NCBI GenBank assembly: GCA_964016885.1
Contig: OZ024742.1
Coordinates: 35,774,001 to 35,838,000 of the forward strand
Direction of reading: 5' to 3'
DNA length: 64,000 nucleotides
From: Eledone cirrhosa
Lineage: Eukaryota
The notes under the pieces are model-generated. The model saw only the letters and a list, made by a program, of their open reading frames with translations. It was not told the DNA's origin and did no database searches. This document shows, one piece after another, positions 2,829 through 58,484 of this stretch. The translations under genes were made by a program, and so were the position numbers. Within the stretch, counting starts at the first letter, position 1. Every line of letters starts with the position of its first letter.

Positions 2829-3413
2829 GTTCGGATAAGGAGAGAACAGTTACACGTAAGAATAGTGTAAGAAGGTTAGGAAAGGAAGTTTTAAAAAATA
2901 GTGGTAGGTGGGGGTTGAAAGTTCCGGCTTGTGGGGTGGGGGTTAGCATGGGTGTGTCGAAGGGGAGACATTGGTAGATGTGCGTGGCTTCTGTCTGTGT
3001 CCCAGATTTTGTAAAGTGAAGTCTGTGAGGTTTAAGTTTGTGTGTGTGCGTACGTGTGAGAGTGCTGGGTAGGGGCTTTTCTGTAAATGTTATATATCTA
3101 TATATATGGGAGTGGGGTATAATGTGGATTTAATAGAAACCTGTCTATTATGAAACCCTTAACAGTAGAAATGACGATCCTTGCGGCGACGGGAAGCAGA
3201 TTTTGGTGGTCTGTGACAGTAGTTTATATTATAAAGAATTTATTTGTTTTAAGGTGAGAAATGTGGAAGGGTTCTGGCACATCTCTGTCATTCTGTGAAA
3301 TACTTCTGTAAACATTTCAATAGTTTTTCCCTAGCCAGGCTCCCATCTTATCTAAAGACCAAAAAAACCCCCAGACATTATGGATGTAGGTTTGGCACAT
3401 ATTCAAACATACA

Positions 3414-3445
3414 TCTGTCTGTTTGTTTGCCTCTCTGTCTGTCAC

Positions 3446-3481
<36 letters not shown>

Positions 3482-3600
3482 TTTCACTATCTGTCTATTT
3501 CTCTGTTTGTCTGCATGTCTCTGCCTGACTGTTGGTCTATATGTTTGCCTGTTTATCTATCTATGGATCTACCTATCTATTTATCTGTCTCTCTATATAT
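3414..3600. repeat. (TCTG/TCTA)n microsatellite; inverted counterpart at ~3985-4052
   Basis: Direct reading. Confidence 0.85.
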
Positions 3601-4055
3601 AAACTTGCATACATAAATATATACATGCATATACACATATGTATACATATATGCACCCAAGCACATATATTCGACAATTAAACCCATCCCCTCTCTTGTG
3701 CGACACCAGAGCTCTTACCACCCCCCGTACCGTTCTTCTTCTTCTTCCTTTCTCTCTTTGTTTTTCTTTCTATATTTCCCTATTCTTTGTTTCCTTTTGT
3801 TTCCCCATTTTTTAATTATTTCTTAGAAATTGTAGATTGTTTCTATTAAAATATAGTAGCCATTGAAATTTACCCTCAGCGAAACCTTCCAGAGAGAAAT
3901 TAATTCATGTATAAACATTTATCTGTTAAAGTTATTTGTGTAAATGGTTTAAGAAGCTAACTAGAAATAATTGTTGGGAGACAGGCACATGGATAGATAA
4001 ATACACAAACAGACAAACAGATAGACAGTCAGACAGACAGATAGATAGATATGTT

Positions 4056-5218
4056 TCTTTTATTTGCCACCAGGGCATCAAAAGTGGGACAAGTACAAAG
4101 GGGGGAGTTTACACAAAAAGGCGTCCTCAATAAGGAGGAGGCAATAACAGTGTATAAAAATAAAATAAAATATAACAAAAAATAAAATTTATAACAAAGT
4201 CCTCAATAGAGAGGAGGCGCCTTGGGGGGTCGCACACACCCCCGAAAAAAGTGTGCAACCCTTTTCCTCAGGAGCACAGAGAGGGGGTGCTCCCTCGTTC
4301 ATTCCTCTTTTCCACCTACAGGCTTATGTAAAGAGAAGGCCCATTCACACGGGCCATTCTCGCCACTTTCACCAACCTTTCATAAAAACGACTGGGGTGG
4401 AGCACCTCTCTCTCCATCCTGATCCTTCTTCCGAAATGATATCGGAAGAAACGGACCAGTTGTTGGCCAGAGAGAAAGGTGCCTGACCTCAGTCCTTTCA
4501 GATGCGTCCACCATACAACTTCTTTCACCATGGCTATTACGCACAGAAACACCGCCTCTCCTTCATCTTTGAAGGGGGGAGGCGGCTTGATCATTACAAT
4601 AGACTCGGTGGTCAACCGGATCGGTCCCACCCTTGACAGCAGTTGTTCGACATAGCCCCACAGATCGGCTACGCCCGAGCAGTGTACCAATGCGTGTGCA
4701 ACGGTTTCCTCGTCGCACACGCATCTGGGACAGATCTTTTTGGCGGGGTCCCTACCCGGGCGCCCGTGTCTGTAGAGCTTTTCTCGAACGGGTAGAGCCC
4801 CTCGGTAGCACTGCCAGGCCAGGGACTTCTGGAAGTTGTCCATAGGTCCCGGGCTGAATGTCCTACCGAACAGGCTGGCCAGTTCGTCCTCCTCCATGTC
4901 TAGGGCTTCTCCGAGGGCGTCGTCGCACCTGCTGCGTACCAGCCCTCTATAGAATGTTGCGGTGGAGTCTCCACTGATAACCGGATCCGCCTGCCAGAGG
5001 GCGGTGAGCGCCTGGGCACACTCAGTGTGCCAGGCGCCCAGTTTTCTCGGTCTTTGCTTGACCCAGGATTGCAGCTCGGTGAGTGAGACGAGTCTGGGAA
5101 AGGTTCGTCTCACAAACGAGGCCCAAACCGGTTGACCGGTGAGGAATACCTGAAGGTGCCGTAGCCTTAATGCGTGTTTACGCATCATTAGCCACGGCAT
5201 CCCCAGCCCTCCTTTCGA
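4056..5218 (-). mobile_element. 5'-truncated Tx1/L1-like LINE copy (ORF2 C-terminus with Cys/His motif plus 3' UTR)
   Basis: ORF 4316-5200 with GGLGMP...CPRC..DEETVAHALVHC; paralogous to 5222-6370. Confidence 0.9.
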
Positions 5219-5462
5219 ATTCTATTTATTTGCCAGCAGGGCATCAAAGATTGGGACAAATACAAGGGGGGGGGGGAGTTTACATACATTTCAAAGGACG
5301 TGGAAAAACATATAACAAATAAAATTCAACAATCAAAGTCCTCAATAGGGAGGGGGCGTTGACGTGGGTCGCACATACCCCCGAAAAAAATGTGCAACCC
5401 TCCTCTTCAGGAGCACAAAGAGCGGGTGCTCCCTTTCTCTCCTCTTTCTTCTCCTCTCTCAC

Positions 5463-8400
5463 CTACAAGCTGATATAGAGAGTAGGCCCATTCACTCGGG
5501 CCATTCTCGCCACTTTCACCCACCTTTCATAAAACTTGCTGGGGTAGAGGACTTCTCTCTCTCTATTTTGATCCTTCTTCTAAAATGGTCCTTGAAAAAA
5601 AGGACCAGTTGTTGGCCGGAGAGAAAAGTGTCTGACCTCAGCCCTTTCAACCTTGTCCACCATACAACCTCTTTCGCCATAGCTATCACACAGCGGAAAA
5701 CCGCCTCTCCTTCGTTGTTGAAGGGGGGGGGGGGGGGGGGTTGATTGTGACAATGTACTCGGTGGTCAACCGGATTGGTCCCACCCACGACAGTAGTCGT
5801 TCCACATAGCCCCACAGGTCAGCAACACCCGGGCAGTGTACGAATGCGTGCGCGACGGTTTCCTCGTCACGCACGCATCTCGGACAGATCTTCTTCGAGG
5901 GGTCCCTACTCGGGCGCCCGTGTCTGTAGAGCTTGTCCCGATCGGGTAGAGCTCCTCGGTAGCACTGCCAAGCCAGGGACTTTTGGAAGTTGTCCATCGG
6001 TCCCGGGCCTAACGTCCTACCGAACAGACTGGCTAGCTCGTCTTCCTCCATGCCCAGAGCCTCTCCGAGAGCGTCGTCGCACTTGCTGCGCATCAACCCT
6101 CTATAGAATGTTGAGGTTGAGTCTCCACTGATTGCCGGATCCGCTTGCCAGAGGGCTGTGAGCGCCTGGGCACATTCAATGTGCCAGTCACCCATTTTTC
6201 TCGGTCTTTGCTTGACCCAGGATTGCAGCTCGGTGAGTGAGACGAGTCTCGGAAAGGCTCGCCTCACAAAAGGGGCCCACACCGGCTGACCGGTGAGGAA
6301 TACCTGGAGGTGCCGTAGCCTTAATGCGTGTCTACGCATCGTCAGCCATGGCATCCCCAGCCCTCCGTTCGAAGGGTGTTGACAGCAGATAGATCTTCTC
6401 ACCAAAGCGGCCCGCATTTTGGCGAGCGTTTTCGCTGGGCAAGGCACGACGGTCAAGCGGTAGTAGATGACGGACGCTATACCTCCGCTCGACCTTTCAG
6501 GGATAGTTTGCACTCGGCCCACTTCTGGGCGAGTGCAAACACCCTGCCCGTTACCTCGTCCCATCGTCCCAGCTTTTCTCGACCTGGAGGTCCGGTCCGA
6601 ACCAGACCCCGAGCAGCTTCACCGGTCTCTCCGTCCAGCGTCCGACGACGCCGTCGGAGGGCATCGGTTTGCATCTCCACTTTCCGAGTTGCAAACCGAC
6701 GGACTTGTCCCGGTTCAGCTTGGCTCCTGTAAACCTTTCGTATACCTCCAGTAAGGTGCCGATCTGCCCAATTTCCGAGGCGCACGACACCATTACTGTC
6801 ACGTCATCGGCGTAGGCCGACACCGCTTTCCGCAATCCCAGTTCCAAGGGGATTCTCTGCAACAGCTCCAACTTCCGCAGTAGTGGCTCGAGAGCCAGCA
6901 CATACAGAAGGGAGGAGAGAGGGCATCCCTGTCGGATGGATCGCGCGATTTGGAACGGCTCCGAGAGGTAGCCGTTCACCTTGACCCTCGAGCAGGTGTT
7001 GCTGTTGTGCATTGCAGCAATCCAGCCCATGAAAACGGGTCCGAAGCCTGCCGCCGAGAGCACCGCTTCCAGGTACCGATGGTCGACCCTATCGAACGCC
7101 TTAGATTGATCCAAGTTGATCAGGGCCCTACCAAAGCCGGGTTCGTTTCCCACCCTCTCTACGATGTATCGCATGAGGTGGAGGTTGTCGTGTATGGACC
7201 TGGACGGCATTGCGCATGTCTGCGCTTCTCCCACCAGGTTCCCGACGACAAGCGCCAACCTCTTCGATAACACCTTGGCCAAAATCTTTAACTCTGTGTT
7301 TAGTAGAGTTATGGGCCTGAAGTTATCTATGTCATCCCCCTTGTTCTCGTCCTTCCTCACCAGCGTGACTACGCCCTTGGTCACAGAACTGGGAATTCTC
7401 CCATTCTGTTGCCAGTTGCAGTAGACCGCCTCGAGGAGATCGGAGAACAAGTCCAGCACCGCTACATAAAGTTCGTATGGTAGACCATCGAGACCAGGAG
7501 ATTTGCGTTTGCCGCATAGGCTCAGCGCTTCCCCTATTTCAGCGGCTGAAATCGGCCTATTGCAGGACTTATCCTCCCCGCCCGAGAGCCGTGGCAGACC
7601 GTCGAGGTATGGACCGGAATCCATGGCCTCACCCGGCCCGCTGCCCCTCCCGAACAGTCGTGCAAAGCGCCGTTGAAAGGCCGCGCACATCCGCTCAGGT
7701 TCAAAGATCACGCGTCCATCCTGGTCCTTCAAAGACCGAATCGTGGACTTGTTTCCACTTTTTGTCTCTGTCACTTGGGCCCAGCTAAGATATTTGGCTC
7801 CCTCGTTACCTAGAGCACGTATTTTACTCCTGACAACGCAGCCCTCGTGCTTCGCCTCAAAGAACTGGTCTAGGGCCGTTCTTGACACCAGCACGCCGGC
7901 CACGTGGCCCCTCATAATCGCCTCTTTTACTCTATCTATCAATTGCCTTTCAGTTCTATTCCTATCTGATGCTAATTTCTGACTAAAACCTATCGATTCT
8001 ATTCTAATTTCTCTCTTGAGAGAGCCCCACCACCCGCTGTTGACAATTGCCCCCGTCAACTGCTTCTTAACTAGATAACTAATCCGCTTACTGTAAGCTT
8101 TGTTTGTCGGTAAGGACAAGTTTAGCTTCCAGTAACCGGGTCCTTGTCTATGGGTTCTATCAAGGTTGACCACTCCGGTCACCAGCTTGTGATCCGAATA
8201 GTCAACCATGAACATTCGTGGACAGCTTAATATGTTCCTATCTTTATTTCTAACTAGGAACCTATCTAGGTACGACCTAGATGTTCCCCTAAAATTAGTC
8301 CACGTCCACAGTGGCACAGTCGGAAAATCTAGTCGATATCTATCTGCCATATCAAATCGGCCGATTAACCGTTTGAGGCTGTTACACCCCCCTCTGTCGG

Positions 8401-8871
8401 GACATGCCCCTACATAGTCCCAACGTGCATCCAGGATATCATTCCAGTCCCCCACTAAAAGCAAGGAGTGAGACGTTCCCAGAAAAGTCTCTAGGCGTTG
8501 GAAGAAGTCCGGTCGCGGTGTCCCAGCTGGGGCATACGTTGCCACCAGCCTGAAGGCTCCACCTTCACTACTGCCTACGTCTAGAACCACCAGTCGACCC
8601 TCCGGGTCCAGGTGTACATTCCGTGTTGCGAGGCCCGGGTGTTTTCGCAGCAGAACGACCACCCCGCCCCCACCCCCGGCTGACAGAGAGATGCATAGAT
8701 CTCAAAGTCGTCGAAGATGGGGGGAGCCAGTTGGTGCTCGCTGCTGATCCTGGACTCGCAAATAGCTATCACATCCATTCTGTGCGACCAGAGGTCATTT
8801 AAAAGTTTGCCCTGCTTCGAGGACCACCCCAGGCCGCGCACATTTAAACATCCAACTCTTATAACAGCCAT
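5463..8871 (-). pseudogene. ORF2 endonuclease / reverse transcriptase, frameshifted
   Basis: LNVRGL, VGDWN, LDRF, SDH (APE); PGLDGLP, FRPITLLN, KAFDRV, RQGCPLS, YADD (RT); split over ORFs 8581-8919, 6551-8662, 6477-6785, 5686-6564, 5516-5815. Confidence 0.93.
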
Positions 8872-10164: not shown

Positions 10165-10255
10165 CGAAGGAAATGTGGTAAGGAACCAGGTGGACCATAA
10201 CGCACCAAAGTACTCAATACTTGAGGTAGTAGAGTGGGTAATAGGAACCAGTAAG

Positions 10256-10349
10256 ACCCCGACAGCTGAGCTCAAGCCGTTTCGACGGCTAATTCTGGAC
10301 TAAATGAACATTTATCCTGGTATTTAAATAGCCGATCTTCTCAAGGGGT
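10256..10349 (-). ncRNA. Type I hammerhead, U3-A8 core variant (family D)
   Basis: Reverse complement of 12199-12292. Confidence 0.8.
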
Positions 10350-12198
10350 AATTCCATATATGGTCAAAGTGATTGTCAAAAATCAGTAGTAATTCTGTGG
10401 TTGCAAATTAGTAGGGGAGATGGTGGCTAAACCTGCCAGTAGGAGAAAGAGGGGAGGGGGTGGAGTAGACCCAATCAAGCGTTGGTAGTGCCAGCTACAG
10501 CTGGGCATGAGGTCAAAGAAGATACAGGGGAGGGGGAGGGGGAGGAAGTCGGAACGGTAGGTAGAACAATGGGGGGTAAAAATAGGAAAGAAAAAATACT
10601 GAGAGTGAAGAAAAGCAAAAAAGTGTAAAGAAAAAATTAAATTCTACGACCTAGGTGTCAGGCTATTGTTAGGCGAGAATAAAATAAAGAAAGAAAGAAA
10701 GAAGTAAATAAATAAATAAATAAATAAATAAGGAAATAAGTAAAAGAACTAGGTGGGACGAATTAAGCAAGGACCCTTTTAAGAGGTATAAGTACGTAAA
10801 TGATACGGTGACTGGTCAACAAAAGGGGCCAAAATACTAAAGAGACTACCACGAAATAAACAATAAAGGTTTCCATCCCGGGCCAGCAACGACCCAGTGC
10901 AGCAAAGTGAACTTGTACGACATAATAATTCTGAGTCCCGGGAAAAATATATACTAATGCTAACTCTAAAAGATCTAAAACAAGCTACATGAAAGTTCGT
11001 ACGAAATAAAGGTAGAATACGGAGAAATAAGTTCAGAATCCACCCCGCCCAGAAGAAAAGCGAAGCAAGAAATACTGAAACGAAAAAATAAGGCATAAGT
11101 GCCACTAAGAAATAAAGAGGGCACAGAGAATAGTGGGAGCGGTCGGAAAAGGGGGGCAAGTATCCGGGGTCTAAGCCAACTGCTATAAAGGGCGGAGTCC
11201 GCCAAATCTATCAAAGACTAGGGGAGGGGGGAGTGGGGGTACTAAGGCTACATGGGGCCAAAGGGCAGCCTCGGGTGGGCGAGAAAAGACGCCGACAAAG
11301 GAGAAGTACCCCCACTCCCCCCTCCCCTAGTCTTTGATAGATTTGGCGGACTCCGCCCTTTATAGCTGTTGGCTTAGACCCCGGATACTTGCCCCCCTTT
11401 TCCGACCGCTCCCACTATTCTCTGTGCCCTCTTTATTTCTTAGTGGCACTTATGCCTTATTTTTTCGTTTCAGTATTTCTTGCTTCGCTTTTCTTCTGGG
11501 CGGGGTGGATTCTGAACTTATTTCTCCGTATTCTACCTTTATTTCGTACGAACTTTCATGTAGCTTGTTTTAGATCTTTTAGAGTTAGCATTAGTATATA
11601 TTTTTCCCGGGACTCAGAATTATTATGTCGTACAAGTTCACTTTGCTGCACTGGGTCGTTGCTGGCCCGGGATGGAAACCTTTATTGTTTATTTCGTGGT
11701 AGTCTCTTTAGTATTTTGGCCCCTTTTGTTGACCAGTCACCGTATCATTTACGTACTTATACCTCTTAAAAGGGTCCTTGCTTAATTCGTCCCACCTAGT
11801 TCTTTTACTTATTTCCTTATTTATTTATTTATTTATTTATTTACTTCTTTCTTTCTTTCTTTATTTTATTCTCGCCTAACAATAGCCTGACACCTAGGTC
11901 GTAGAATTTAATTTTTTCTTTACACTTTTTTGCTTTTCTTCACTCTCAGTATTTTTTCTTTCCTATTTTTACCCCCCATTGTTCTACCTACCGTTCCGAC
12001 TTCCTCCCCCTCCCCCTCCCCTGTATCTTCTTTGACCTCATGCCCAGCTGTAGCTGGCACTACCAACGCTTGATTGGGTCTACTCCACCCCCTCCCCTCT
12101 TTCTCCTACTGGCAGGTTTAGCCACCATCTCCCCTACTAATTTGCAACCACAGAATTACTACTGATTTTTGACAATCACTTTGACCATATATGGAATT

Positions 12199-12292
12199 AC
12201 CCCTTGAGAAGATCGGCTATTTAAATACCAGGATAAATGTTCATTTAGTCCAGAATTAGCCGTCGAAACGGCTTGAGCTCAGCTGTCGGGGT
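12199..12292 (+). ncRNA. Type I hammerhead, U3-A8 core variant (family D)
   Basis: ACCCC-UUGAGAA-GA(U)CGGCUA...UAGCCGUC-GAAA-CGGCU(UGAGCUC)AGCUG-UC-GGGGU. Confidence 0.82.
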
Positions 12293-12302
12293 CTTACTGG
12301 TT

Positions 12303-12375
<73 letters not shown>

Positions 12376-17989: not shown

Positions 17990-18522
17990 ATGTTTTTTAT
18001 ACATATTTACCTCGACTGCGATTGTCTGTTTCTCTCTTTCTGCTCCCCCGTTCTCTCTGTTTCTCTCATCTTCTTTCGCCCCCTCTGTCAGTTACACTTT
18101 CTCTCGACTGACCTCTTCCTCGCACTTCCTCTCACTCACTCTCTGTTTCTCCCCTTCTCACTTCCTCCCGTTCGTTAGAAGTGGGATTCTTTCTTTCTCA
18201 CATCTCATTCACGTCGGATGGTCTGTTTTCTGATCGCTCATGAAATTCACCCAGATTATGCTGATCGGATAACTATCATGTTGCTTGCTTTTTTCCTACC
18301 TTCGGTTTGCTTTTCCTTCTATGTTGTTTACTTGTCTCACTCGCTTTACGTGATTCACTTGTCCCAATAGCTTATTTTAGTTATTGCTCGCACCAACCTG
18401 AGGTATATGATTTTTAATGCGATGAAATACCAATGATGGTTGGCAAATCACTGATGAGGGACTAATTTTATAATATGTAACCCATGTGCAACCACGCAGT
18501 TTTCCTCTTTCTTCCCATGTTT
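17990..18522 (+). mobile_element. Non-coding module carrying a rearranged hammerhead (family M)
   Basis: Homologous to 24073-24639 (-); (TA)n flanks. Confidence 0.7.
18361..18462 (+). ncRNA. Non-circularly permuted, pseudoknotted hammerhead candidate with kink-turn
   Basis: GGUAU-A-UGAUU ... GAAAUACC ... AAUCA-CUGAUGA; helices covary with 24101-24202. Confidence 0.75.
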
Positions 18523-18541
18523 TATATATATATATATATAT

Positions 18542-20863
<2,322 letters not shown>

Positions 20864-23146: not shown

Positions 23147-23942
23147 ATTATGAAGAGAGAAGAAACATTTAGATATAATTAGTAATAAAATGTATCATAC
23201 CTAAACTGCTCCTAGATTCCTCGACTACGTAGTTTCGTGGCATAAACAAAAACAATACATCATAAAGATATAGAGTCCTTGCGAGGTCTGCCGACTTATC
23301 AAGAGGATACCTCATTTTACTAGTCTCAAGAACGCGTCTACACGACGTGAGAAAGAATCCAAAAGGCGGAGGGGGAGACAGTCACGCGATATAACGGTCG
23401 AGAAACAGAGCTAAGCCTCTTATAACCCCGAAGAAAATACCACGGAGGCGGAGGGGGTATTTATATCGAAGCCGTAGAAGAGGTGGTGAAGGAGGCGAGA
23501 AGTATGAGTAATGGAAGCTTTCCAGCAGTCCCCACACTTCAAAGATTGCTCGACCAGAGGGAGTTATTAACAATATATTTAGAAACACACAGATACATGC
23601 GGACACACACATATACATGAATGCATCCGCACCCAACCGTGAGTTAAGGGTGCCAACTTCACCGATGTTGCTCAATGAATGACTGGGACAGACCAATCCG
23701 GTTGAACTAGACTGAACCAGTATCAGAGTTAAAAATACATTATGAAGAGAGAAGAAACATTTAGATATAATTAGTAATAAAATGTATCATACCTAAACTG
23801 CTCCTAGATTCCTCGACTACGTAGTTTCGTGGCATAAACAAAAACAATACATCATAAAGATATAGAGGCACCCTTAACTCACGGTTGGGTGCGGATGCAT
23901 TCATGTATATGTGTGTGTCCGCATGTATCTGTGTGTTTCTAA

Positions 23943-23945: not shown

Positions 23946-23987
<42 letters not shown>

Positions 23988-24072
23988 TTGAAATAAAATG
24001 AAAACGAAATTTCATTTCTCACTCTTAGTACGGCACTTACTTACTTACATATATATATATATATATATATAT

Positions 24073-24636
24073 GAATAAAAATAGACCGAGAAACAAGACT
24101 GTCCTTCATCAGTAGCCTGCGGATTATCATTGGTATTTCTTCGCATTAAAGACTAGATACCTAAAGTCAGTGCGAGCGATAACTAAATTAAGTTATCGGG
24201 ACAGAGGAAAACAGAGGAAAGGAAACAAACAACATGGTAGTAATGCAACGTAAAGAGAGGAAAAGAGAGACAAGTCAATGAATATTGTGGGCTTAAGTCC
24301 GACAAATCAAATGATGAGAAGAAACAGACACGTCCGAGCCACGAGAAAAGTGAGAGAGGAAAGAAATTCACGCAGGTCAGACGGGAAGAAGTGAGAGAGG
24401 AGGAGTAGCAGAGAGTGAGTGAAAGTGTGAGGAAGGGGCCAGCCGAGAGTGGAGGAAAGCAAGAGGTGAAGGAGATAGAAGGGAGAGAGAGAAAGAGGAT
24501 AGCAGTAAGGTGAAAGAAAAAATACGAACCACAGCGAAGGGAAACAATATATGTGAATGAAAAATGACGTGCTGCGTTGTTGCGAATATGAACATATGAA
24601 TAAAAATAGACCGAGAAACAAGAAGGTCCATCATCA

Positions 24637-24639
<3 letters not shown>
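24073..24639 (-). mobile_element. Family M module: 525-bp unit plus ~42-bp terminal direct repeat
   Basis: GAATAAAAATAGACCGAGAAACAAG...CATCAGTA at 24073 and 24598; (TA)n flanks. Confidence 0.75.
24101..24202 (-). ncRNA. Second copy of the rearranged hammerhead candidate
   Basis: Ungapped 102-nt alignment to 18361-18462 with compensatory changes. Confidence 0.72.
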
Positions 24640-24679
<40 letters not shown>

Positions 24680-24826: not shown

Positions 24827-24895
24827 TAGAAAGTGAGATTTTTTTTACAAAATGAAAAATAACCGAAGTGTCCTACACGAGTGAAAGTATAAAGA

Positions 24896-25321
<426 letters not shown>

Positions 25322-31065: not shown

Positions 31066-32944
31066 CATATATACCTTGTTGTTCGACCTCCATCAGTTCC
31101 GATTACTTGTGTTTCAGTCGTGTGATTAACGGATCTGCTGCCTCGTGAAATTTACATGTATGTGGCTGAGCATTCAACAAACGCGTGACCCCTTAACGTA
31201 ATTCTTGTGAAGACACAGCATGATACGGTGTGTGACAAGGATAGCTCCTTTATATTACACGTACAACCCATTTTTTCCAGCTGCGTGGAATAAAGTATCT
31301 TATTGAAAGACACATCCCGCTGCCGGAAATCAAAAACATAACTTTATGATCATGAGATAAACACCCTAATCGTAAGTTCAGAGAGATGTCTTAATGAAGA
31401 CTAGGAGTCTCTCATACATATTAACACACTGCATTCATATACTCTATTGAACATGTCTTAATCCTTTAACATTTAAACCGGCTGCATCCGGCCAGAATTC
31501 TCTCATCTCTTTCTGTTCAAACCGGCTGTTATTGGCCACTCATGCTGATGTTAAGGTATTGTTCTCAAAATAAAAAAATCAAAAAAATCTCATAGATTCA
31601 ATATTATCACAAAAATACAATAATAAATACAGAGTAATGCAAATGCTAAAGGTTAAGGGAAATTTATGGCATACTGCTTGTCTGGTGCATTTAACCCTTT
31701 TTATACCTAATTACCTGAAATCATCCCTGGTTCTACGAAACAAAACTATTCTAACGTGTTTATGTTTATCTAAAGGCCTATCATAATTTCATATGAGAAC
31801 CTTAGTTATGTTCAAAATACCAACTTCATAAAATAAACACCCCAATCACGACATTCAAACATATACACATATATATATATACATATATATGATAAAGTTA
31901 TATCTGTATAAATACAGTGTGTAACTGAGCTTGCACCACCTTGTATAAATATATACACATATCTACTATGTAGGCATGTAAACATATCTAATATGTAGGT
32001 ATGTAAACATACCAGAAATGCGTGTTTATTATCAAATTAGTTCTCTAAATTCTTGGTTATTTCAAAACTGATTTGAAAATCATAGACAGTGTCTTTCTTT
32101 AGAAATATGGGGAAAAAACGTAAAACCTGTTGGGGCCCATCCTTCTCCAGGTCGGAACACAGGTGATGTGAAATTAGATATGCAACTGCCTCAGAAGATC
32201 TGGCCTTACAAAACTAGAAAAGGCTCACCTATTTATTTATTTATTCATTTATTTAATCAAATTAAACGTACACGTAGAGCTGCTTGTAATCTATGATAGA
32301 TTGGGAACATCCCACCGAGGTTATCTTTGCCCTTCATCCTTACGGGGTCGATAAAATAACGTACCAGTAATGCACTGGGATAATTGCTGGCCTTGTGCCA
32401 AAAGTAGAAATAAATATTCCTTATAAATAAGAAATAACAACAAAAGAGAGACAAAGAGAAAAAAAGCAAAAGAAACAAAACGACAGCTATAGAGCAATTG
32501 AATATTTCTGTTGTTGAAATATGTGTGGCTTCCATGCACAAGAAGATCTTGTTTATGGTCGGTAGATCTTTGTCAATATATGGCACCTCAAATCTTTGTA
32601 GATGTTTAAAGACCATTTTTAAAATGCCCTTACACATCGCCTCTTTCTTACTGGTATTTTTTACATTGAAACAAATATTACATGTTATTGAAAAAAGTAT
32701 GTAAAATATTCCAGAAGTTCAGTCTGTTATAACTACGTATATAAACCTGTAGACATACAAATATGTTTATCTTTACACATACATTCATATCCACTCATAC
32801 ATGTCAAAATATACATATCCACTCACACACACACTATATATATATATATATATAGTGAAAAATTGAACGGGAACAAAACAGAGAGGCAGTACGAACAAAG
32901 GTTTATTAATTTCACGCTCTTGAGAGTGCGGTGGTGGTGGGGAA

Positions 32945-32975
32945 CGACGTTTCGGGCATAAGCCCTTCTTCAGGT
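32945..32975 (-). ncRNA. Minimal PLE-type hammerhead (family G) in the TA-flanked module 32855-34195
   Basis: AC-CUGAAGA-AGGGC(UUAU)GCCC-GAAA-CG-UC-GU; stem I weak. Confidence 0.6.
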
Positions 32976-33227
32976 GAAAAGTGTGTGGGAAGAGAGTTCA
33001 AAGGGTGTGTAGGGGAGTGGTGGAGAGACATATAGCAAAAAGGGGGTGGGAGGAAACGGTGCAAATGAAATTAAAAATAAAGGCATGATCAAAATAAAAT
33101 TAAAATGGGGTAAAACAGGTGGTGGAAGGGTGTGGGGCGTGTAGGGGTGGTGGAGGGTGGAGTGAGGAGAGGGAGATGGGGTGTCCGAGAGGGGAGGGCT
33201 GAAGGTGGTGTGTGTGTGTAGGTATAC

Positions 33228-33258
<31 letters not shown>

Positions 33259-34192
33259 AAAGCAAGGGTTGGGGGAAGAACGGAGTTGCATGTTCAGGAA
33301 GAGGTGTATGTGGGGTGGGGTGTAGGTCGGAGTGTGTGTGCGTGTGTGGATAGAGGGGTGGGGAGAGAGGATTCCGGAGGCTGAATGTGTAAATATGTGG
33401 TGGTACGCACGTGTGTGTGTGGTGTTTATGTATGTTGTGGATGTAGGTGGCGTGTGGGAAAAAAAATGTTTGGGTGTGTGTCTGGGGTGAGTCGTAAAGG
33501 TAATTCCGTAAAAAGATGTGGTGGAATGCTGAGTAAAATCCTGGGATGCGGTAGATTCTCGGGATCAAGGTTCACATATGTGTAATCCGTGAAGAGATGG
33601 GTCGGAAGAGGGGAGATGTGGGGTGCGCGCGCAACAGGAAGTGGTCAGAGGGTCAAGGCAGGAGGAGGGTTGTGTGTCTGTGTGTGCGGGGAGGTGGTCA
33701 GGGGCATAGCAGCAGTAGAGTAGAATGGTAAGTGAAGAAAGTCGGTGTGTCAGTGTGTGCGGAGGTGCGGTGGACAGGGGAGAGGATGTGTAGGTGTGAA
33801 AGTTGGAGTGAGGAGGGGGGTGTATTAGTAGAGGCGTTAGTGGGATGTGTGAGTGTTTGATAAAGGGTGTGGGTGGAGCGGGGAGAGAAGGGTGTGGGGG
33901 CCGATGGAGGGAGTGTAGTGCACTGGTGTGTGTGTGTGGTGAAGGGGGTGTTAGTGGGTGTTAGTATACTGGAGGTGGAGAAAGGGTTGAATGCGGGTGT
34001 GAGTGGGGGTCAGTGGTGGTAGGGTGTGTAGAGTGGGTGGTGTAAGAGGGTGTGTGTGTTCGTGTGCGTATGGTTGGGGAGTGTTAGTGATGTTAGTTGC
34101 GTGTAGAGTGGGTGGTGTAAGTGTGTGTGTGTGTTCGTGTGCTTGGGGTCAGGGGGTGTTAGTGATGTTAGTTGCGGGGTGGTGGGGTGGAT

Positions 34193-34288
<96 letters not shown>

Positions 34289-34406: not shown

Positions 34407-35580
34407 TCAGGCGATCAGATCCCGACTCTTAATCGACACCTCCTCAGATGATGTAAGGATGAGTATGTCATCTACATATCGGGTGAAGAAGGCATGGGAA
34501 TGGCAGGTGTTGAGGGCTCGGCATTCTAGCTGGTTCATGTAGGTGATGGCCAGCAGGCCCGATAGGCTGGATCCCATGGGTAATCCTGTTGTCTGTCTGT
34601 ATGTGTGGTGGTGGAAGGTGAAGTACGTGTTGTCTACTGTGAAGGACAAAAGCTGGTGTATGTCCGTCGGGTGGAGGCCGTAGCAGTGGATGTCCTCTGC
34701 GACCACGCAGTCCGTCAATAAATCGACAGCTGGATGAGCGGGGACTGTAGTGTAGAGGGAGACAACGTCGAGGCTAAAAGCGTATTTATTTAGTTTAAGT
34801 TGTTCTGGCTGGAGTTGGTGTAGTCTACGTATAACTTCGTCGGAGCTACTGACATGCCCGGGAAAGGTCGAGAGTAGAGGCTTGAGGACCTGGGAGAGGA
34901 GCCAGGAAATTTTGTATAGGGGTCCTTCTATGCTAGAGACGATGGGTCTTATTTGCGTCTTAGTACTATTCTTGTGGGTCTTGATGAGGTGGTAGAAAGT
35001 GGGCAGTCTGCTATTTCTAGTGGTGTAGTTGAGCTTAACTTTATTTGGGAGTTGTCTTCTCCTACAGATATCGAACCAAATGGAGTTGGTCTGTTTTTCG
35101 ATCTGGGCTGCAGTCATGTCCGGGATCTCGGTGTATAATTCATTGTCGCTTAGGTGTTCAAAGGCTAGGTTATTGTATGTGGCTTGAGAGATGACGCAAA
35201 ACTCTTTACCTTTGTCGGGTGGTAAGTATATAAGTTCCCTATTCCGTAGGTTCTTCAGGGCGAGTTGTTGTGTCCTTGAGAGGTTTGGGGCTATCTTCTT
35301 CTGTTTCCGTAAGATGTTAAATACGGAATGTTTTAGTCTCGAGAGTTTTTCTTCAAGCTCGCGGTTGGCAGGCGGTGGACAGAGTGGGCGATCTAGTTGG
35401 TATATCGGGAATCTGGGTTTGATAGATTCCGTGGTGTTGTTGTCGAGAGTCGATATCCATTTTAGTTGGTAGGCAGTCCGACAGAAATTCGTTTCTATGT
35501 CGAGCCATAATTTGTCGTCCAGTCTCTGTTTCAATATGAACTTGGGACCCAGGCTGAGGAGGTCTAATTCCTCTCGGGAG
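34407..35580 (-). pseudogene. Penelope-like reverse transcriptase, truncated just after YVDD
   Basis: DKG, FYHLIKTHK, IRPIVS, SLDVVSLYTTVP, GLPMGSSLSG, RYVDD. Confidence 0.92.
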
Positions 35581-35715
35581 ATATTATCTCGAACATTAAG
35601 GACATTTAAATAAATCTAAGGTAAAAGACGAATTGTCAACAATATCTTTTGCAATTGCATTCTTTTTTCTATGTCCATACCTGCATTGTTTTGGCTTTAT
35701 TATACATATTCAAAC

Positions 35716-36161: not shown

Positions 36162-36772
36162 TATAGTTTTTCATTAACACCAACTATATTGTTTAATGTC
36201 ACGCTTGTTTGCATCTAAACGTCCTGTAATAATTAATGAAATATGTAATGAGAATTAGTAATAATGATATAATTATCAATTTTCATTAAATAATTCATAG
36301 GTAACCGCTGCAGTCGTTTTCTTTTCTCTGTTTCATCTTTTAAAATAAAAATATAACTCTACAAACAATTACGGAAGACATAACGTCCGTTGTTAAAATA
36401 TAATTACACGAAGTATTATGGTGTTGTCAGTAGGTTTCCGGTTTGTATGTGTTTAATGGAAATGCATATGTAGCTGATTATCACTGGTAACATCCACCAT
36501 AGAGAGTTAGTCTACAGAATGAAACATCATTGTATTATTTGTCGGACGCCATGGTTTGTAGCATAGAGTTACGCACCTTTATGGTCTGAGTTCAAATCCC
36601 GCCGAGGTTAACTTTGCCTTTTATCCTTACGGGGTGGATAAAATAAAATACCAGTAATGTACTGCATTAATTCTGGTCTTGTGCCAAAAGTAGAAACAGT
36701 TATTTGTGAACGGTTCTTTCACAGGCTTACAGGACTCAAAAGCCATTTGAGAATCAAGTCAGTATTATGTCG

Positions 36773-36972
36773 NNNNNNNNNNNNNNNNNNNNNNNNNNNN
36801 NNNNNNNNNNNNNNNNNNNNNNNNNNNNNNNNNNNNNNNNNNNNNNNNNNNNNNNNNNNNNNNNNNNNNNNNNNNNNNNNNNNNNNNNNNNNNNNNNNNN
36901 NNNNNNNNNNNNNNNNNNNNNNNNNNNNNNNNNNNNNNNNNNNNNNNNNNNNNNNNNNNNNNNNNNNNNNNN
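36773..36972. other. Assembly gap (200 N)
   Basis: Run of n. Confidence 1.
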
Positions 36973-39179
<2,207 letters not shown>

Positions 39180-39327
39180 GGCGGGCTGTATGCTTACAAT
39201 TAAGTATAATGAAAATAAAAGTTACGGGCGAAAGAGGGTAATATGCATCGTCAGTTATCTGGTATGATTCTTAGCAGACTACTGACGATGGATATTTCCC
39301 TCTTTCGCCCGTAACTTTTATTTTCAT

Positions 39328-39451
<124 letters not shown>

Positions 39452-45378: not shown

Positions 45379-46430
45379 CTATCCGTTGGGGTATATCGTG
45401 GGGCTGTAATACAGGAAAGTTTTGTGCAATTTATGTTTACAAGCCGAAATTGCCTCGGATTTTTTGTTTAAGATGTGGTCTGTGGTGTACAGTGTTTCCA
45501 GGGCCTCAGCGGCGCAGAGGTCACATGGTCTTTTATTTCCGTAATACGATCTAGCCCTAGCTAGGATCTCCCAGTGTAACTTATATTGGGTGTGGTTGTC
45601 TTTTAGACTCCAGATATAAGCTGAAAGTGACGTCATATTCCTTCTTAGAGGGTAACGAAAAGAATGGGTATGCATGTAAAGACGCTGCTTGAAACTATTG
45701 GCGGTTAACCCTATGTAGGCCCTACGGGACGTGGGTGTTACAACCTTACATTTGTAGACAATGTTACTAGAGAGGCATTTACCGGATAGGGGCAATCAGC
45801 CCGATTCCTGCAATTACAGTTAGTACTAACTACAGGGTTGCACGTGTTCCTACGGCTAGGTAGTTTAGCTAAATTTGAAGCTGTGATGTTATGTGCAAGG
45901 TTAGGAGTCGTAGAGTAAGAAATTTTAATAGTATTTCTATTAAAAATTTTACTATATTTATGTGTAGGGGGGAAATGCTTCGTAATAAGGGAAAGAAAGA
46001 TCTTAGCTAATGGTGTGGCCACCTCCATATTATATGGTGGGTTAAACCAACAAATGCGACGGGATCTATTTCTTCTAGGTCTATTTTCGTACTCTGTATA
46101 AGCTACTATATCGACAAATCCACTTCGAGCAAGAGCTTCATTGTAATAAGTGGAATGGTCGTTGAAAATGCGCTCGTTGGTGGAAAGACGGGAAAGCCTC
46201 AACGAAACGTTTTTTACCAGGTTCTTGGTTATGCTGGCAGGATGGTTGGAATGCTTACTTATGTAATTAAACGTATCATTCGGCTTTCTATACGGGTAAT
46301 ACAACCCATTCAATAAATTGAGGGTAACGTCGAGGTAATTAACGACCGAGAGATTGGCCTCAACCTGTATAGAGAGGTTGAAGCCTTTAAAGAAGGCTGT
46401 GAGTTCTTTTCTGAACCTGTCGCAAGCACG
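45379..46430 (-). pseudogene. PLE RT-thumb plus GIY-YIG endonuclease (Nematis-like by motif), frameshift near 45790
   Basis: NYLDVTL, YRKP, SNHP, WFNPPY, CNCR..CPLSGKC, IVY...YIGLT..FKQR..H, CDLC..E. Confidence 0.88.
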
Positions 46431-46690
46431 AGGTCCGCACTTAGTCATGGTACAAACCACCGCCCGCGTTGGAGAATTCGTCCTTGATAGAGAAAAGAAG
46501 GAAAAGGCCAATAAGATCAGTAACCTCCGCAGAGTCACTGGCGCCCATACTCACGTCGAATGGGGTGCTATTGGATTTTTTAATCCAAATAGAGTCGTCG
46601 AAATTAATCACCGATATATATTTTCCTTATCGAGCCCTCTTTGGATTTTAGTCTTCAATTTTATTATTATTACTATATATTTATATATAT

Positions 46691-48486
46691 ATAAAAACAA
46701 ATAACGAAACGAAATTAAATTTCGTTTCGTTTGTAACTCACTTTTGTATGACTGACGCTTAAACAATTAAGTCAAAAATGTACATCCACATATGTATACT
46801 GAAATACTAGTATGCATATGAATACACATACGTATACATATGTAGATGTACCGAGTTTTTCACTGGTCACTTTACTGTGAGTGTCCAGCTATTCTGTATG
46901 TAAACACACAGACAAACCGGTTTTTAGAGTCATACTGGTTTTTGAGGAAACACCTTTCCTCTATTCACCAGAAAGCCAGACAAGGAATATTGAACTAGTT
47001 TCGATGTTGTTACATCTCATCAGCAATATTTACCTATCTTCCGGCCTCTCTAGAGAGTCGTAAAAGCACATATCGTTATATGCTTTTTCTATGAAAATTA
47101 GTAGTGGGCAGACCAATTTGCATAGAGCGTGAGTACGTACCGGTTCAACCGAGACGATAAAAACAAATAACGAAACGAAATTAAATTTCGTTTCGTTTGT
47201 AACTCACTTTTGTATGACTGACGCTTAAACAATTAAGTCAAAAATGTACATCCACATATGTATACTGAAATACTAGTATGCATATGAATACACATACGTA
47301 TACATATGTAGATGTACCGAGTTTTTCACTGGTCACTTTACTGTGAGTGTCCAGCTATTCTGTATGTAAACACACAGACAAACCGGTTTTTAGAGTCATA
47401 CTGGTTTTTGAGGAAACACCTTTCCTCTATTCACCAGAAAGCCAGACAAGGAATATTGAACTAGTTTCGATGTTGTTACATCTCATCAGCAATATTTACC
47501 TATCTTCCGGCCTCTCTAGAGAATCGTAAAAGCACATATCGTTATATGCTTTTTCTATGAAAATTAGTAGTGGGCAGACCAATTTGCATAGAGCGTGAGT
47601 ACGTACCGGTTCAACGGAGACGATAAAAACAAATAACGAAACGAAATTAAATTTCGTTTCGTTTGTAACTCACTTTTGTATGACTGACGCTTAAACAATT
47701 AAGTCAAAAATGTACATCCACATATGTATACTGAAATACTAGTATGCATATGAATACACATACGTATACATATGTAGATGTACCGAGTTTTTCACTGGTC
47801 ACTTTACTGTGAGTGTCCAGCTATTCTGTATGTAAACACACAGACAAACCGGTTTTTAGAGTCATACTGGTTTTTGAGGAAACACCTTTCCTCTATTCTC
47901 CAGAAAGCCAGACAAGGAATATTGAACTAGTTTCGATGTTGTTACATCTCATCAGCAATATTTACCTATCTTCCGGCCTCTCTAGAGAATCGTAAAAGCA
48001 CATATCGTTATATGCTTTTTCTATGAAAATTAGTAGTGGGCAGACCAATTTGCATAGAGCGTGATTTAATTTCGTTTCGTTATTTGTTTTTATCGTCTCC
48101 GTTGAACCGGTACGTACTCACGCTCTATGCAAATTGGTCTGCCCACTACTAATTTTCATAGAAAAAGCATATAACGATATGTGCTTTTACGATTCTCTAG
48201 AGAGGCCGGAAGATAGGTAAATATTGCTGATGAGATGTAACAACATCGAAACTAGTTCAATATTCCTTGTCTGGCTTTCTGGAGAATAGAGGAAAGGTGT
48301 TTCCTCAAAAACCAGTATGACTCTAAAAACCGGTTTGTCTGTGTGTTTACATACAGAATAGCTGGACACTCACAGTAAAGTGACCAGTGAAAAACTCGGT
48401 ACATCTACATATGTATACGTATGTGTATTCATATGCATACTAGTATTTCAGTATACATATGTGGATGTACATTTTTGACTTAATTG

Positions 48487-48488
<2 letters not shown>
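46691..48488 (-). mobile_element. Family A array, 466-bp subtype: ~3 units (-) plus an inverted partial unit (48064-48488 +)
   Basis: Period 466; HHRs at 46986-47030, 47452-47496, 47918-47962 (-) and 48220-48264 (+); (TA)n flanks. Confidence 0.9.
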
Positions 48489-56382: not shown

Positions 56383-58484
56383 ATGTAAGTGTCTAAGCAT
56401 TCCACAGGCGCGAGTACTTTTAATGTAATTCTCAGGCAGATTCAACGTGACGCAAGTCAACCCAATATCACTCACAAGGCTTGTCGATCGAAGTTTGTGG
56501 TGAAAGATTCTTCTATAAGACGCCACATAGTGAGATCGAACGTGATACCACGTGATCTCGAAGAGAACGTCCTAACCATTCAGCCTTGTCTGTGTCCAGT
56601 GCGTCAATGTTATTTAACTGTTATATCATAATTATATATAAAGTCACTCTCAATTCTATCTGATTGAGACGAACACAGATACTAAAATAGTTCCAAAATC
56701 AATTTGTTGTATTACGTCTCAAATATGATGCAGTGTTGCTGTGAATGAAGCATGGCCGAATAGATAAGAGTTAACTTCAAGGGTCATGGTCTTGGATTCG
56801 ATCCTACCGTATAGCATGGTAGACAAGGGTCATTTATACCGTGGCCGCGGGTCGACCCATGTCTTGTGAGTGAAATTGAGTAGACGGAGAGCGTTTGGAA
56901 GTTTGTCGGATAGGCTATACCTGAAATTCAAATGACCAGCCTTGTTACACAGTATCACGCTAAATCTCCCTGAAAATGGTTAAGGGTATTCACGTCGGTA
57001 CAATGCTCAGCCACTTACATTTAATCTCACGAACAATTTGTTCCGTTGATCGAATGACAAGAAAACATTGTCAAAACTGACATTCCATGTGCAATACGTA
57101 GTCGCTTGAATTCTAGAAATAACAGCCACACCATTTTCAAACCACACAACAGCCCTTGGAAAATATATAAATTATTGAAGATAAGTCGATCGACAAATAT
57201 ATACATATACTTAATCTAAACAGCAACAGGGCTATTAAGAGGTCATTCGGCCTGCTAGGGTTAAACAATTAGAGCAGCAGCAACAGTAGCAGCACTACCA
57301 ATAGTAACAACAGCAACTACAACAAACGATAACGTCCACCAAAGCTGTGATTAAACAAATTTTCTAAGACAAACAGGTTTGTCAGGCAAGTCACCAAATA
57401 TTCTGACAAGCAGAATATACTCCTGACAGTTAAACGCCGAAAGCTGACAGTGTGAACGTGTGTCTCATTTTCCAGCACAAACTGGAAGGGGGTAAAAAAA
57501 AGTAGCAGATAAAAAAATATCCTGGTCAGACAACATCAAGAACTGAACAGGTCACAACACTGCGCCACTTGTGTATTTGACAGAAACCAATGGGGATTGC
57601 TGACTATCAGTATGCCTAGAGCAATCATCGGCAACCTGCAGCCCGCAAAGCTTTCTGAATGGCTCGTCTAAGTCACCTAGGTGAAATCTTTCTGATTTTT
57701 GTACCCCAACTTTTCAGATGTAATTTATCTTTCTATCATTTTTTCGATCGAGGAAAATAACGTGTACGAATTCTGAAGAAACAAATCAAAACAACCTGAG
57801 TTACCACCATTTTTTTTTTTTATGTGGGCACGAATGTAAATTAGCGCTTGCGGCCCGCCTGATGATGAGCCATATCTCATGCGGCCTGCTTCTCGAAAAA
57901 GGTTGCCCATGTCTGCTCTAGAGTGACACCCAAATAATTACCTGCACCAGATACTGGAAGACGGTGATAAATACCTTATTGGGGAAAGAGGAAATATGTT
58001 GTTATATGAAAGTATTAACAGATCTCAACATTGGTCCCCTTCTGTGTATAAGGGAGAATAGAGATCAGTTGTGATTGTTGAGTACCAGAACGACGGACTG
58101 CACCGAGTTGATGATAAAGAATATTCTAAAGCGTGGGGAAAGACTTTTCTGCAGAAATTTCATTAGAGCAGACGATAGTTTTTCATAAGCTGAAATATCA
58201 CAAAGAGGGGGTAGGGGGAGAGGGAGACGGAGAGGGAGTGTGAGTTATTTCATCTTCCATTTCTTGCAATTCATAAAACTAATTAGTTCTTGACTAAACT
58301 GAAAATGTCTCAGATAACAAGAATGGTTAAAGCAACAACAACAACAACAACAACAACAAAACTAATAGTAAGAAAAGAAGGAAAATAAGGGTGTTTGGTC
58401 AGGGATGCTATCAGGTTGGAAAATATTGCATCAGAAAAGAAATACGTACTTATATTAAACCTATGTTAGCATACGTTAGGAGGA

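Follow-up and report, generated by a model that had tools for sequence, protein, structure and literature searches.

Animal retrozymes are described as non-coding elements that combine a type I hammerhead with highly self-paired monomers and occur as linear and circular RNA (Cervera and de la Pena 2020, PMC7229834). A different arrangement is found in the type-SGC hammerhead (HRIMA-1 and variants; Eckert et al. 2023, PMC10085705); in that account S-G-C hammerheads came from metatranscriptomes only, and none is given from the genomes of known organisms. In one pseudoknot-containing hammerhead reported to be active, a pseudoknot takes the place of most of helix II (Zhan et al. 2024, PMC11300833). 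Among PLEs, Naiads are described as preferring (TA)n and forming tails and inverted copies (Craig et al. 2021, PMC8557442). They are listed there without canonical hammerheads, but an 'HHR_half_core' was flagged in eight families, including those of Octopus and Euprymna, and the cephalopod Naiads are presented as old remnants. For Poseidon PAc, two internal start sites used in vitro account for an optional tail (Frangieh et al. 2024, PMC11167929).

Here we analyse a 64,000-nucleotide stretch of the Eledone cirrhosa genome (GCA_964016885.1, contig OZ024742.1, positions 35,774,001 to 35,838,000), hereafter the window. The insertion at 24073..24639 is quite probably a copy, truncated at its 5' end, of a 525-nt unit that is non-coding, present in many copies and endowed with a predicted S-G-C hammerhead, reverse-transcribed into (TA)n by the protein of an autonomous Neptune/Nematis-type PLE, the ribozyme fold having its likely origin in Naiads. 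The insertion, its parts and its relatives in the window are the following.

24073..24639, minus strand: whole insertion of 1.08 family-A units, 567 nt in all with a unit of 525 nt, non-coding.
24073, minus strand: 3' end of the insertion, coinciding with the short fixed 3' end of the family.
24073..24597, minus strand: the single full monomer, 525 nt.
24598..24639, minus strand: redundant 5' piece, the final 42 nt of the preceding unit; it holds the C block, the helix-A 3' strand and the terminal U-rich motif, without the S or G block.
24050..24072, no strand: (TA)n, target or tail, at the 3' end of the insertion.
24638..24676, no strand: (TA)n at the 5' end of the insertion.
17993..18525, plus strand: related young family-B unit, a 528-nt monomer with the same ribozyme and compensatory changes.
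39177..39330, no strand: short two-armed inverted remnant of a third subfamily, with ribozyme 3' halves only, recognised by eye against L066 and L102.

The first-pass annotation had described a direct repeat of about 42 bp that makes a ~1.08-mer within (TA)n and contains no ORF, and all of this is borne out. Positions 24073-24114 and 24598-24639 are identical at 39 of 42 sites with a spacing of 525, and (TA)n lies on both sides of the 567 nt. No AUG-started ORF is present in the linear 525-nt unit, and a Pfam search of its AUG-less 151-codon stop-free stretch returned no match. Read as a circle, the family-A majority (43% GC, 71% pyrimidine) has a 162-codon AUG frame and family B one of only 51 codons, which rules out a conserved junction-spanning ORF; the family-A frame is long because of the pyrimidine content.

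Searches of the 3.0-Gb genome returned at least 87 matches to the family-A unit (40 scored of 2,566 candidates) and at least 74 to the family-B unit at 18 kb (40 scored of 3,140 candidates). The S-G-C ribozyme core pattern has 9,387 exact matches against 2 in a reversed control and is therefore not a chance occurrence; a further family pattern, lying 3' of the predicted cut, gave 6,458 matches against 0. About 120 of some 10,000 genomic places were looked at. Unit lengths across the family range from 509 to 637 nt, and copies diverge from their own majority by 5.2% in family A and 1.6% in family B. Compared with three contig sets of one sample, the unit is visible only as a high-copy repeat.

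Sixty loci, picked for covering a full unit (length-ranked), were mapped on tandem monomers: their 3' ends are fixed, their 5' ends vary, the head-to-tail unit junction is crossed seamlessly and no copy exceeds 2.3 units. Among position-ordered loci, all ribozyme-centred segments (59/59) can be placed on circular monomers of 509-637 nt. Because 5' ends are variable and the unit junction is read through, the 42-bp redundancy is not a terminal repeat; it is simply where the 5' end of this copy fell. In family A, 3' ends use a short site in 18 of 28 loci and a long site, 43 nt further on, in the other 10. Clean two-armed inverted insertions pair a short with a long end in 10/13 cases and like ends in 3/13 (TA-only rows and four ambiguous rows left out). 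The family therefore bears a PLE-type footprint: a fixed 3' end, an optional tail, variable 5' truncation, partial tandems, an inverted 5' copy and (TA)n. Tails that may or may not be present, inverted 5' copies and partial tandems are features of PLEs according to PMC8557442. In AT-rich targets, two internal start sites, extension of both strands and a ribozyme just 5' of the starts, it resembles Poseidon PAc as described in PMC11167929; it differs in a non-autonomous template, a tail of 43 nt and arms possibly from two families.

On the minus strand of the full monomer, the predicted ribozyme is laid out as follows.

24100..24203, minus strand: predicted S-G-C hammerhead domain, with the helix A 5' strand at 24202-24199 and its 3' strand at 24104-24101; between them lie, in order, hairpin B, helix C, helix D and stems III and I.
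24155..24161, minus strand: S block, the stem III 5' strand and the A-U-C triplet.
Between 24156 and 24155, minus strand: predicted cut, placed by analogy with hammerheads (PMC10085705).
24132..24139, minus strand: G block, GAAA and the stem III 3' strand.
24106..24118, minus strand: C block, the stem I 3' strand and CUGAUGA.

The order cleavage site, GAAA, CUGAUGA is that of type SGC, the hammerhead class of PMC10085705. CUGANGA, GAAA and NUH are all found in this order, most core letters being prescribed by the search pattern. The proposed fold has six helices: stem I, stem III with helix D on its flank, helix C (an upstream strand paired with the strand before GAAA), the closing helix A and hairpin B. 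In an alignment of 21 representatives (of 29 clusters, after removing rows that had deletions, contained junctions or were of odd length), 93.4% of cells are paired and 14 of the 33 pairs have changed on both sides. The covariation score was reached by 0/500 shuffles, a control that related sequences without structure can also beat, and slid controls are 26-50% paired. No pair of helix C has changed on both sides among these 21 rows, and stem III is fixed by the pattern within each search, but is not the same in the two pattern classes and in the Naiad remnants. A second pattern with a different stem III has 109 older matches against 7 in its control; among 45 fetched copies of this pattern 2, stem I forms 5-6 of its 6 pairs in 28, compared with 11.3 in partner shuffles (0/2000), so that stem I covaries.

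Stem II is abnormal as a helix. In type SGC it joins the strand right after CUGANGA to the strand before GAAA; here one variable position is all that is left of it, and an upstream splint takes up both would-be strands, in helices A and C. That position, the N:A pair at 10.1-11.1, is a pair or wobble in 66/93 copies. Like type SGC as described in PMC10085705, the predicted ribozyme connects the 5' strand of stem I to the pre-GAAA strand through a 3-4-nt linker, and its additional helix D links the latter strand's partner to stem I. It differs in that this partner lies upstream of S, and not after CUGAUGA, in that stem II is interrupted by closing helix A and hairpin B, and in its source, animal genomic DNA. 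By these comparisons the predicted ribozyme is an SGC hammerhead variant with a split stem II. As in the hammerhead of PMC11300833, a pseudoknot helix next to G12 stands in for most of helix II; in that report, however, CUGAUGA precedes GAAA and the G10.1-C11.1 pair is kept, whereas here the order is reversed and the pair variable. A pairing of GGAC with the stem I strand, considered by eye, is absent in family B and was rejected. An Rfam scan of the window at the gathering score gave 0 matches, and in the open-access literature we found no prior description of this fold in animals or Naiads.

The redundant end had been said to include CUGAUGA-N-GGAC with N=U upstream, which would pair with the A before GAAA, and the copy at 18 kb to have G.U at this position. 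We find CTGATGA-T-GGAC at 24637 in the upstream, redundant end and CTGATGA-A-GGAC at 24112 downstream, both on the minus strand, and at 18451 on the plus strand CTGATGA-G-GGAC with T before GAAA. The bases are thus as annotated, but the proposed pairing is not conserved, 27 of the 93 ribozyme copies being unpaired there. In the only complete ribozyme of the insertion at 24073..24639, N is an A facing A and two positions of helix D are mismatched, which marks the copy as decayed; with one complete ribozyme, the locus could not release unit-length RNA by two cuts. The base after CUGAUGA (family-A monomer position 493, window 24105 / 24630) is A, U or C; the two repeats of an insertion carry it almost independently of each other, whereas the neighbouring bases agree. 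The source array may be heterogeneous, or RT may be especially error-prone at this base if it is modified or strained.

The units share with animal non-LTR retrozymes, as these are presented in PMC7229834 and in a preprint by Li et al. 2026 (10.64898/2026.07.22.740005), a non-coding sequence without LTR, one hammerhead core per unit, monomers to short tandems, a GC content below 45%, many dispersed copies and a PLE proposed as helper. They differ in several respects: in place of a type I hammerhead, the blocks stand in S-G-C order and are pseudoknotted; units measure 509-637 nt against 170-400 nt (51-972 in 10.64898/2026.07.22.740005); helper junctions are seen directly; and circles are known from the animal retrozymes, whereas our material is genomic DNA alone. 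The monomer is also not highly self-paired, with a fold z of -0.11 relative to shuffles; folded as a circle it is 42-43% paired, about 1-1.5 sd below shuffles. The element would work like an animal non-LTR retrozyme but lacks the type I hammerhead and the self-paired monomer.

Some 5' flanks of units point to a partner. Of 14 looked at, three are head-to-head with a 5'-truncated PLE: L079 and L107 through direct junctions, and L091 (duplicated as L092) via 105 nt derived from a different repeat. Starting from the PLE side, we examined 68 loci; once 8 cut by the locus edge and 10 of full length are set aside, 50 copies show a 5' junction, and one of them (L278) is joined directly to a family-B unit, with a 5-nt overlap. 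Unit/PLE composites are few: 3 independent cases in position-ordered loci and 0 among the 60 length-ranked loci. No PLE continuation is present on the far side of the unit in L079, L107, L278 or L091=L092; the composites therefore look like single two-armed events with two RNAs, and not like insertions into an older copy. In 3/4 composites the PLE arm comes from an older subfamily and is 70-76% similar to the young reference.

The candidate helper PLE has 31,611 candidates genome-wide, with copies up to 99% alike. Its frames of 823 and 828 codons encode an RT, then a CX4CX2C linker and, C-terminally, GIY-YIG, domains whose Pfam scores lie below the curated cut-offs. It carries a type I hammerhead and ends, before (TA)n, in a U-rich motif shared with the unit. 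The RT, the CX2-5CxxC linker, the C-terminal GIY-YIG and the type I hammerhead are the features of Neptune, shared with Nematis; by the criteria given in PMC8557442 the helper would be of Neptune or Nematis type, an assignment made on motifs and not on an RT tree. This young PLE is the likely helper of the units. The window holds a 3' part of it at 32850-34200 (minus), with a type I hammerhead at 32973. In L270, L311, L312 and L314, its 5' ends are joined to other small repeat families, which suggests that it serves several non-autonomous partners.

The ribozyme fold itself likely descends from the 3' ends of Naiads. Reading by eye the sequences of the Naiad consensus file of PMC8557442, we find the same block order and helices at 7 of 31 CTGATGA places (26-56), both Octopus Naiad consensuses among them; most of the remaining places in that file lie in ORFs. 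In the E. cirrhosa genome, a search with one decayed 70-aa sequence gave 53 Naiad RT matches, 39-80% like the query, with a longest open frame of 233 aa; because the query was single and decayed, a divergent intact Naiad could be missed. Of 12 aligned 3' regions behind these remnants, 7 contain a decayed S-G-C motif, and one remnant's 3' region matches two pattern-2 ribozymes (E 2e-5). No ribozyme is readable at the 3' end of remnant L173, and no Naiad peptide was found upstream of the older pattern-2 ribozymes, where the matches were other repeats. The published Octopus Naiad ribozyme pattern has 2 genome matches, and the one that also fits the core pattern has no long ORF upstream. The homology to Naiads is one of fold, not of the unit body. 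The units also share with Naiads, as described in PMC8557442, the (TA)n targets, tails and inverted copies; they differ in having no ORF, and the Naiads found in this genome are broken, so to speak outlived: the units likely persisted beyond their Naiads by using another PLE. In the supplement of PMC8557442, the 3' ends of some nematode Naiads have CUGANGA before GAAA and a long insert, an arrangement that may be another pseudoknotted hammerhead.

Whether the predicted site is cut, and from which RNA the units are copied, can be approached from the ends of the copies. Independent 5' ends number 8 in the 16 nt after the predicted cut and 4 in the 39 nt before it (p 0.008; counted by eye in the first 100 rows of the pattern 3' of the cut, one ambiguous row and three deletions left out). 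In family B the second pass terminates at a rate of 0.0105 per nt up to the cut and of 0.0041 per nt beyond it (p 0.018), and in L242 both arms begin at the predicted cut. Cutting of this site in the template RNA is indirectly suggested, though RT stalling in the folded domain could be the source of the excess. We consider it unlikely that the motif has lost its cutting activity and persists as a structured signal inherited from Naiads, for protein binding or for the 3' end, with the family a SINE-like PLE partner. The abnormal stem II would fit this, as would reports that 8/9 frog retrozyme dimers stayed uncleaved in vitro (bioRxiv 10.64898/2026.07.22.740005) and that cleavage is dispensable for PLE insertion in vitro (PMC11167929); yet CUGAYGA, GAAA and N-U-H are kept across subfamilies while the helices covary, and the 5' ends accumulate immediately 3' of the predicted cut, where the L242 arms also start. 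Since most copies cross the cut site, the main template must be uncut or re-ligated there. A classical retrozyme cycle, in which two ribozymes excise a monomer and the PLE enzyme copies 0.1-2.3 times per insertion round a ligated ~525-nt circle, is a tentative possibility somewhat short of an even chance. It would explain why copying runs past the cut shortly after its start in nearly all copies, and it finds a precedent in the demonstrated circles of type-I animal retrozymes (PMC7229834). Loci with at least two complete ribozymes in tandem exist (7/30 in family B, plus L002, L010, L016 and L029; the insertion at 24073..24639 is not one), and repeats within one insertion agree at diagnostic sites in 106/144 cases against 72.8 expected in family A and 30/37 against 22.4 in family B, as expected from one circle or one source locus. 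However, adjacent units are of different haplotypes at nine linked diagnostic sites in L010 and at three in L016, and N is unlike between repeats in 8/17 insertions, with U upstream and A downstream four times, as at 24073..24639. The L010 haplotypes and the N differences require heterogeneous multimers, template switching or later conversion. The poor self-pairing of the monomer also speaks against a circle, as does the one PLE tested in vitro, whose main template was uncleaved RNA (PMC11167929). Most likely, linear multimers and template switches both contribute to the template, possibly along with circles. Of the retrozyme family with a rearranged hammerhead proposed in the first-pass annotation, the multi-copy, non-coding, PLE-mobilised character and a template longer than one unit stand; the plain single-circle template is opposed by L010 and by the variation of N.

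The identity of the helper can be questioned in its turn. The units might still be moved by a Naiad protein from an intact family that escaped the search, the Neptune-type junctions being incidental; we give this a low probability. The shared fold at Naiad 3' ends and the (TA)n preference, tails and inverted copies of Naiads (PMC8557442) are in its favour, but all 53 Naiad RT matches lie in short, diverged frames, cephalopod Naiads are old remnants by the account of PMC8557442 while family B lies 1.6% from its majority, and the four unit/PLE composites involve another clade. Far less credible is a unit that serves as pseudo-LTR to a longer PLE with an ORF, or that is a satellite multiplied through unequal crossing-over, an option we regard as very improbable even though PLE pLTRs also yield partial tandems (PMC8557442) and frog retrozymes are said to resemble pLTRs (bioRxiv 10.64898/2026.07.22.740005). 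The earlier annotation would have yielded if all copies had been pLTRs of ORF-bearing PLEs; no sampled copy runs into an ORF. Each copy longer than one unit enters the previous unit and never upstream coding DNA, and an ORF with RT and GIY-YIG upstream of a terminal repeat, the mark of an autonomous PLE with pLTRs, was not found. PLE ORFs beside the units of L102 and L104, on the same strand, are separate insertions behind TA tracts, and were rejected as partners; a pLTR-ORF-pLTR reading of the 2.9-kb spacing in L091/L092 fails as the ORF is on the other strand. Copies are, moreover, dispersed on many contigs, with at most about 2.3-3 units each.

Under the preferred reading, that of a truncated unit copied by a Neptune/Nematis-type protein, tandem loci would be transcribed into multi-unit RNA, part of which would self-cleave at the A-U-H site and possibly be ligated to circles. 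The PLE protein would nick both (TA)n strands, and reverse transcription would have an internal start at either of two U-rich sites, separated by 43 nt and lying ~83 and 126 nt 3' of the cut site. Copying would then pass the uncut or re-ligated site into the preceding unit, the 42-bp redundancy marking its stopping point, and two strands primed on different RNAs would produce unit/unit or unit/PLE inverted arms. A bolder synthesis may be put forward, although we would sooner doubt than accept it in full: that ~10,000 copies of retrozyme-like elements are built on an undescribed, multiply pseudoknotted S-G-C hammerhead, which is the 'missing' Naiad ribozyme; that once their Naiad parents had died they adopted the protein of a Neptune-type PLE, the two active sites of which can copy two different RNAs into one cut; and that circular RNAs of ~525-630 nt are made in vivo. 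If true, a non-circularly permuted hammerhead known so far from environmental RNA only would exist at very high copy in an animal genome, where type-I descriptors miss S-G-C hammerheads. The apparent absence of a ribozyme in Naiads would be explained, and the long-proposed PLE helper of animal retrozymes would gain junction evidence, including a likely switch of helper clade. With young family-B units and near-intact helper ORFs at hand, cleavage, circularisation and priming are open to direct testing.

The window contains further repeats. A young tandem repeat of 466-469 bp with a minimal type I hammerhead per unit is a classical retrozyme-like family, present as 4.5 units at 1-2134 and as 2.9 units with an inverted arm at 46691-48488. 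Another type I hammerhead family occupies 18885-20520 in tandem and inverted form (CTGATGA at 19014, 19989 and 20509); a fragment of it at 23985-24050 adjoins the insertion studied here. Broken ORFs of other PLE families are found at 34407-35615, 36719-38454 and 45379-46550, with an RT match (PF00078) at 34407-35612 and a GIY-YIG-like frame at 45379-45795. At 4316-8701 (minus), a 716-codon endonuclease-RT frame belongs to a LINE-type element whose 3' parts are duplicated. Inverted repeats that are long and perfect or nearly so lie at 10241-12307 (arms of 1003 nt), 23580-23940 and 24830-25140 and are probably two-armed insertions of other small PLE partners; the stretch 23760-23870 has the look of a decayed hammerhead. 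Finally, a 31-bp tandem repeat of many units that contains CTGATGA occurs at window position 57859 and, in L174, ~3300-3700 downstream of the motif.
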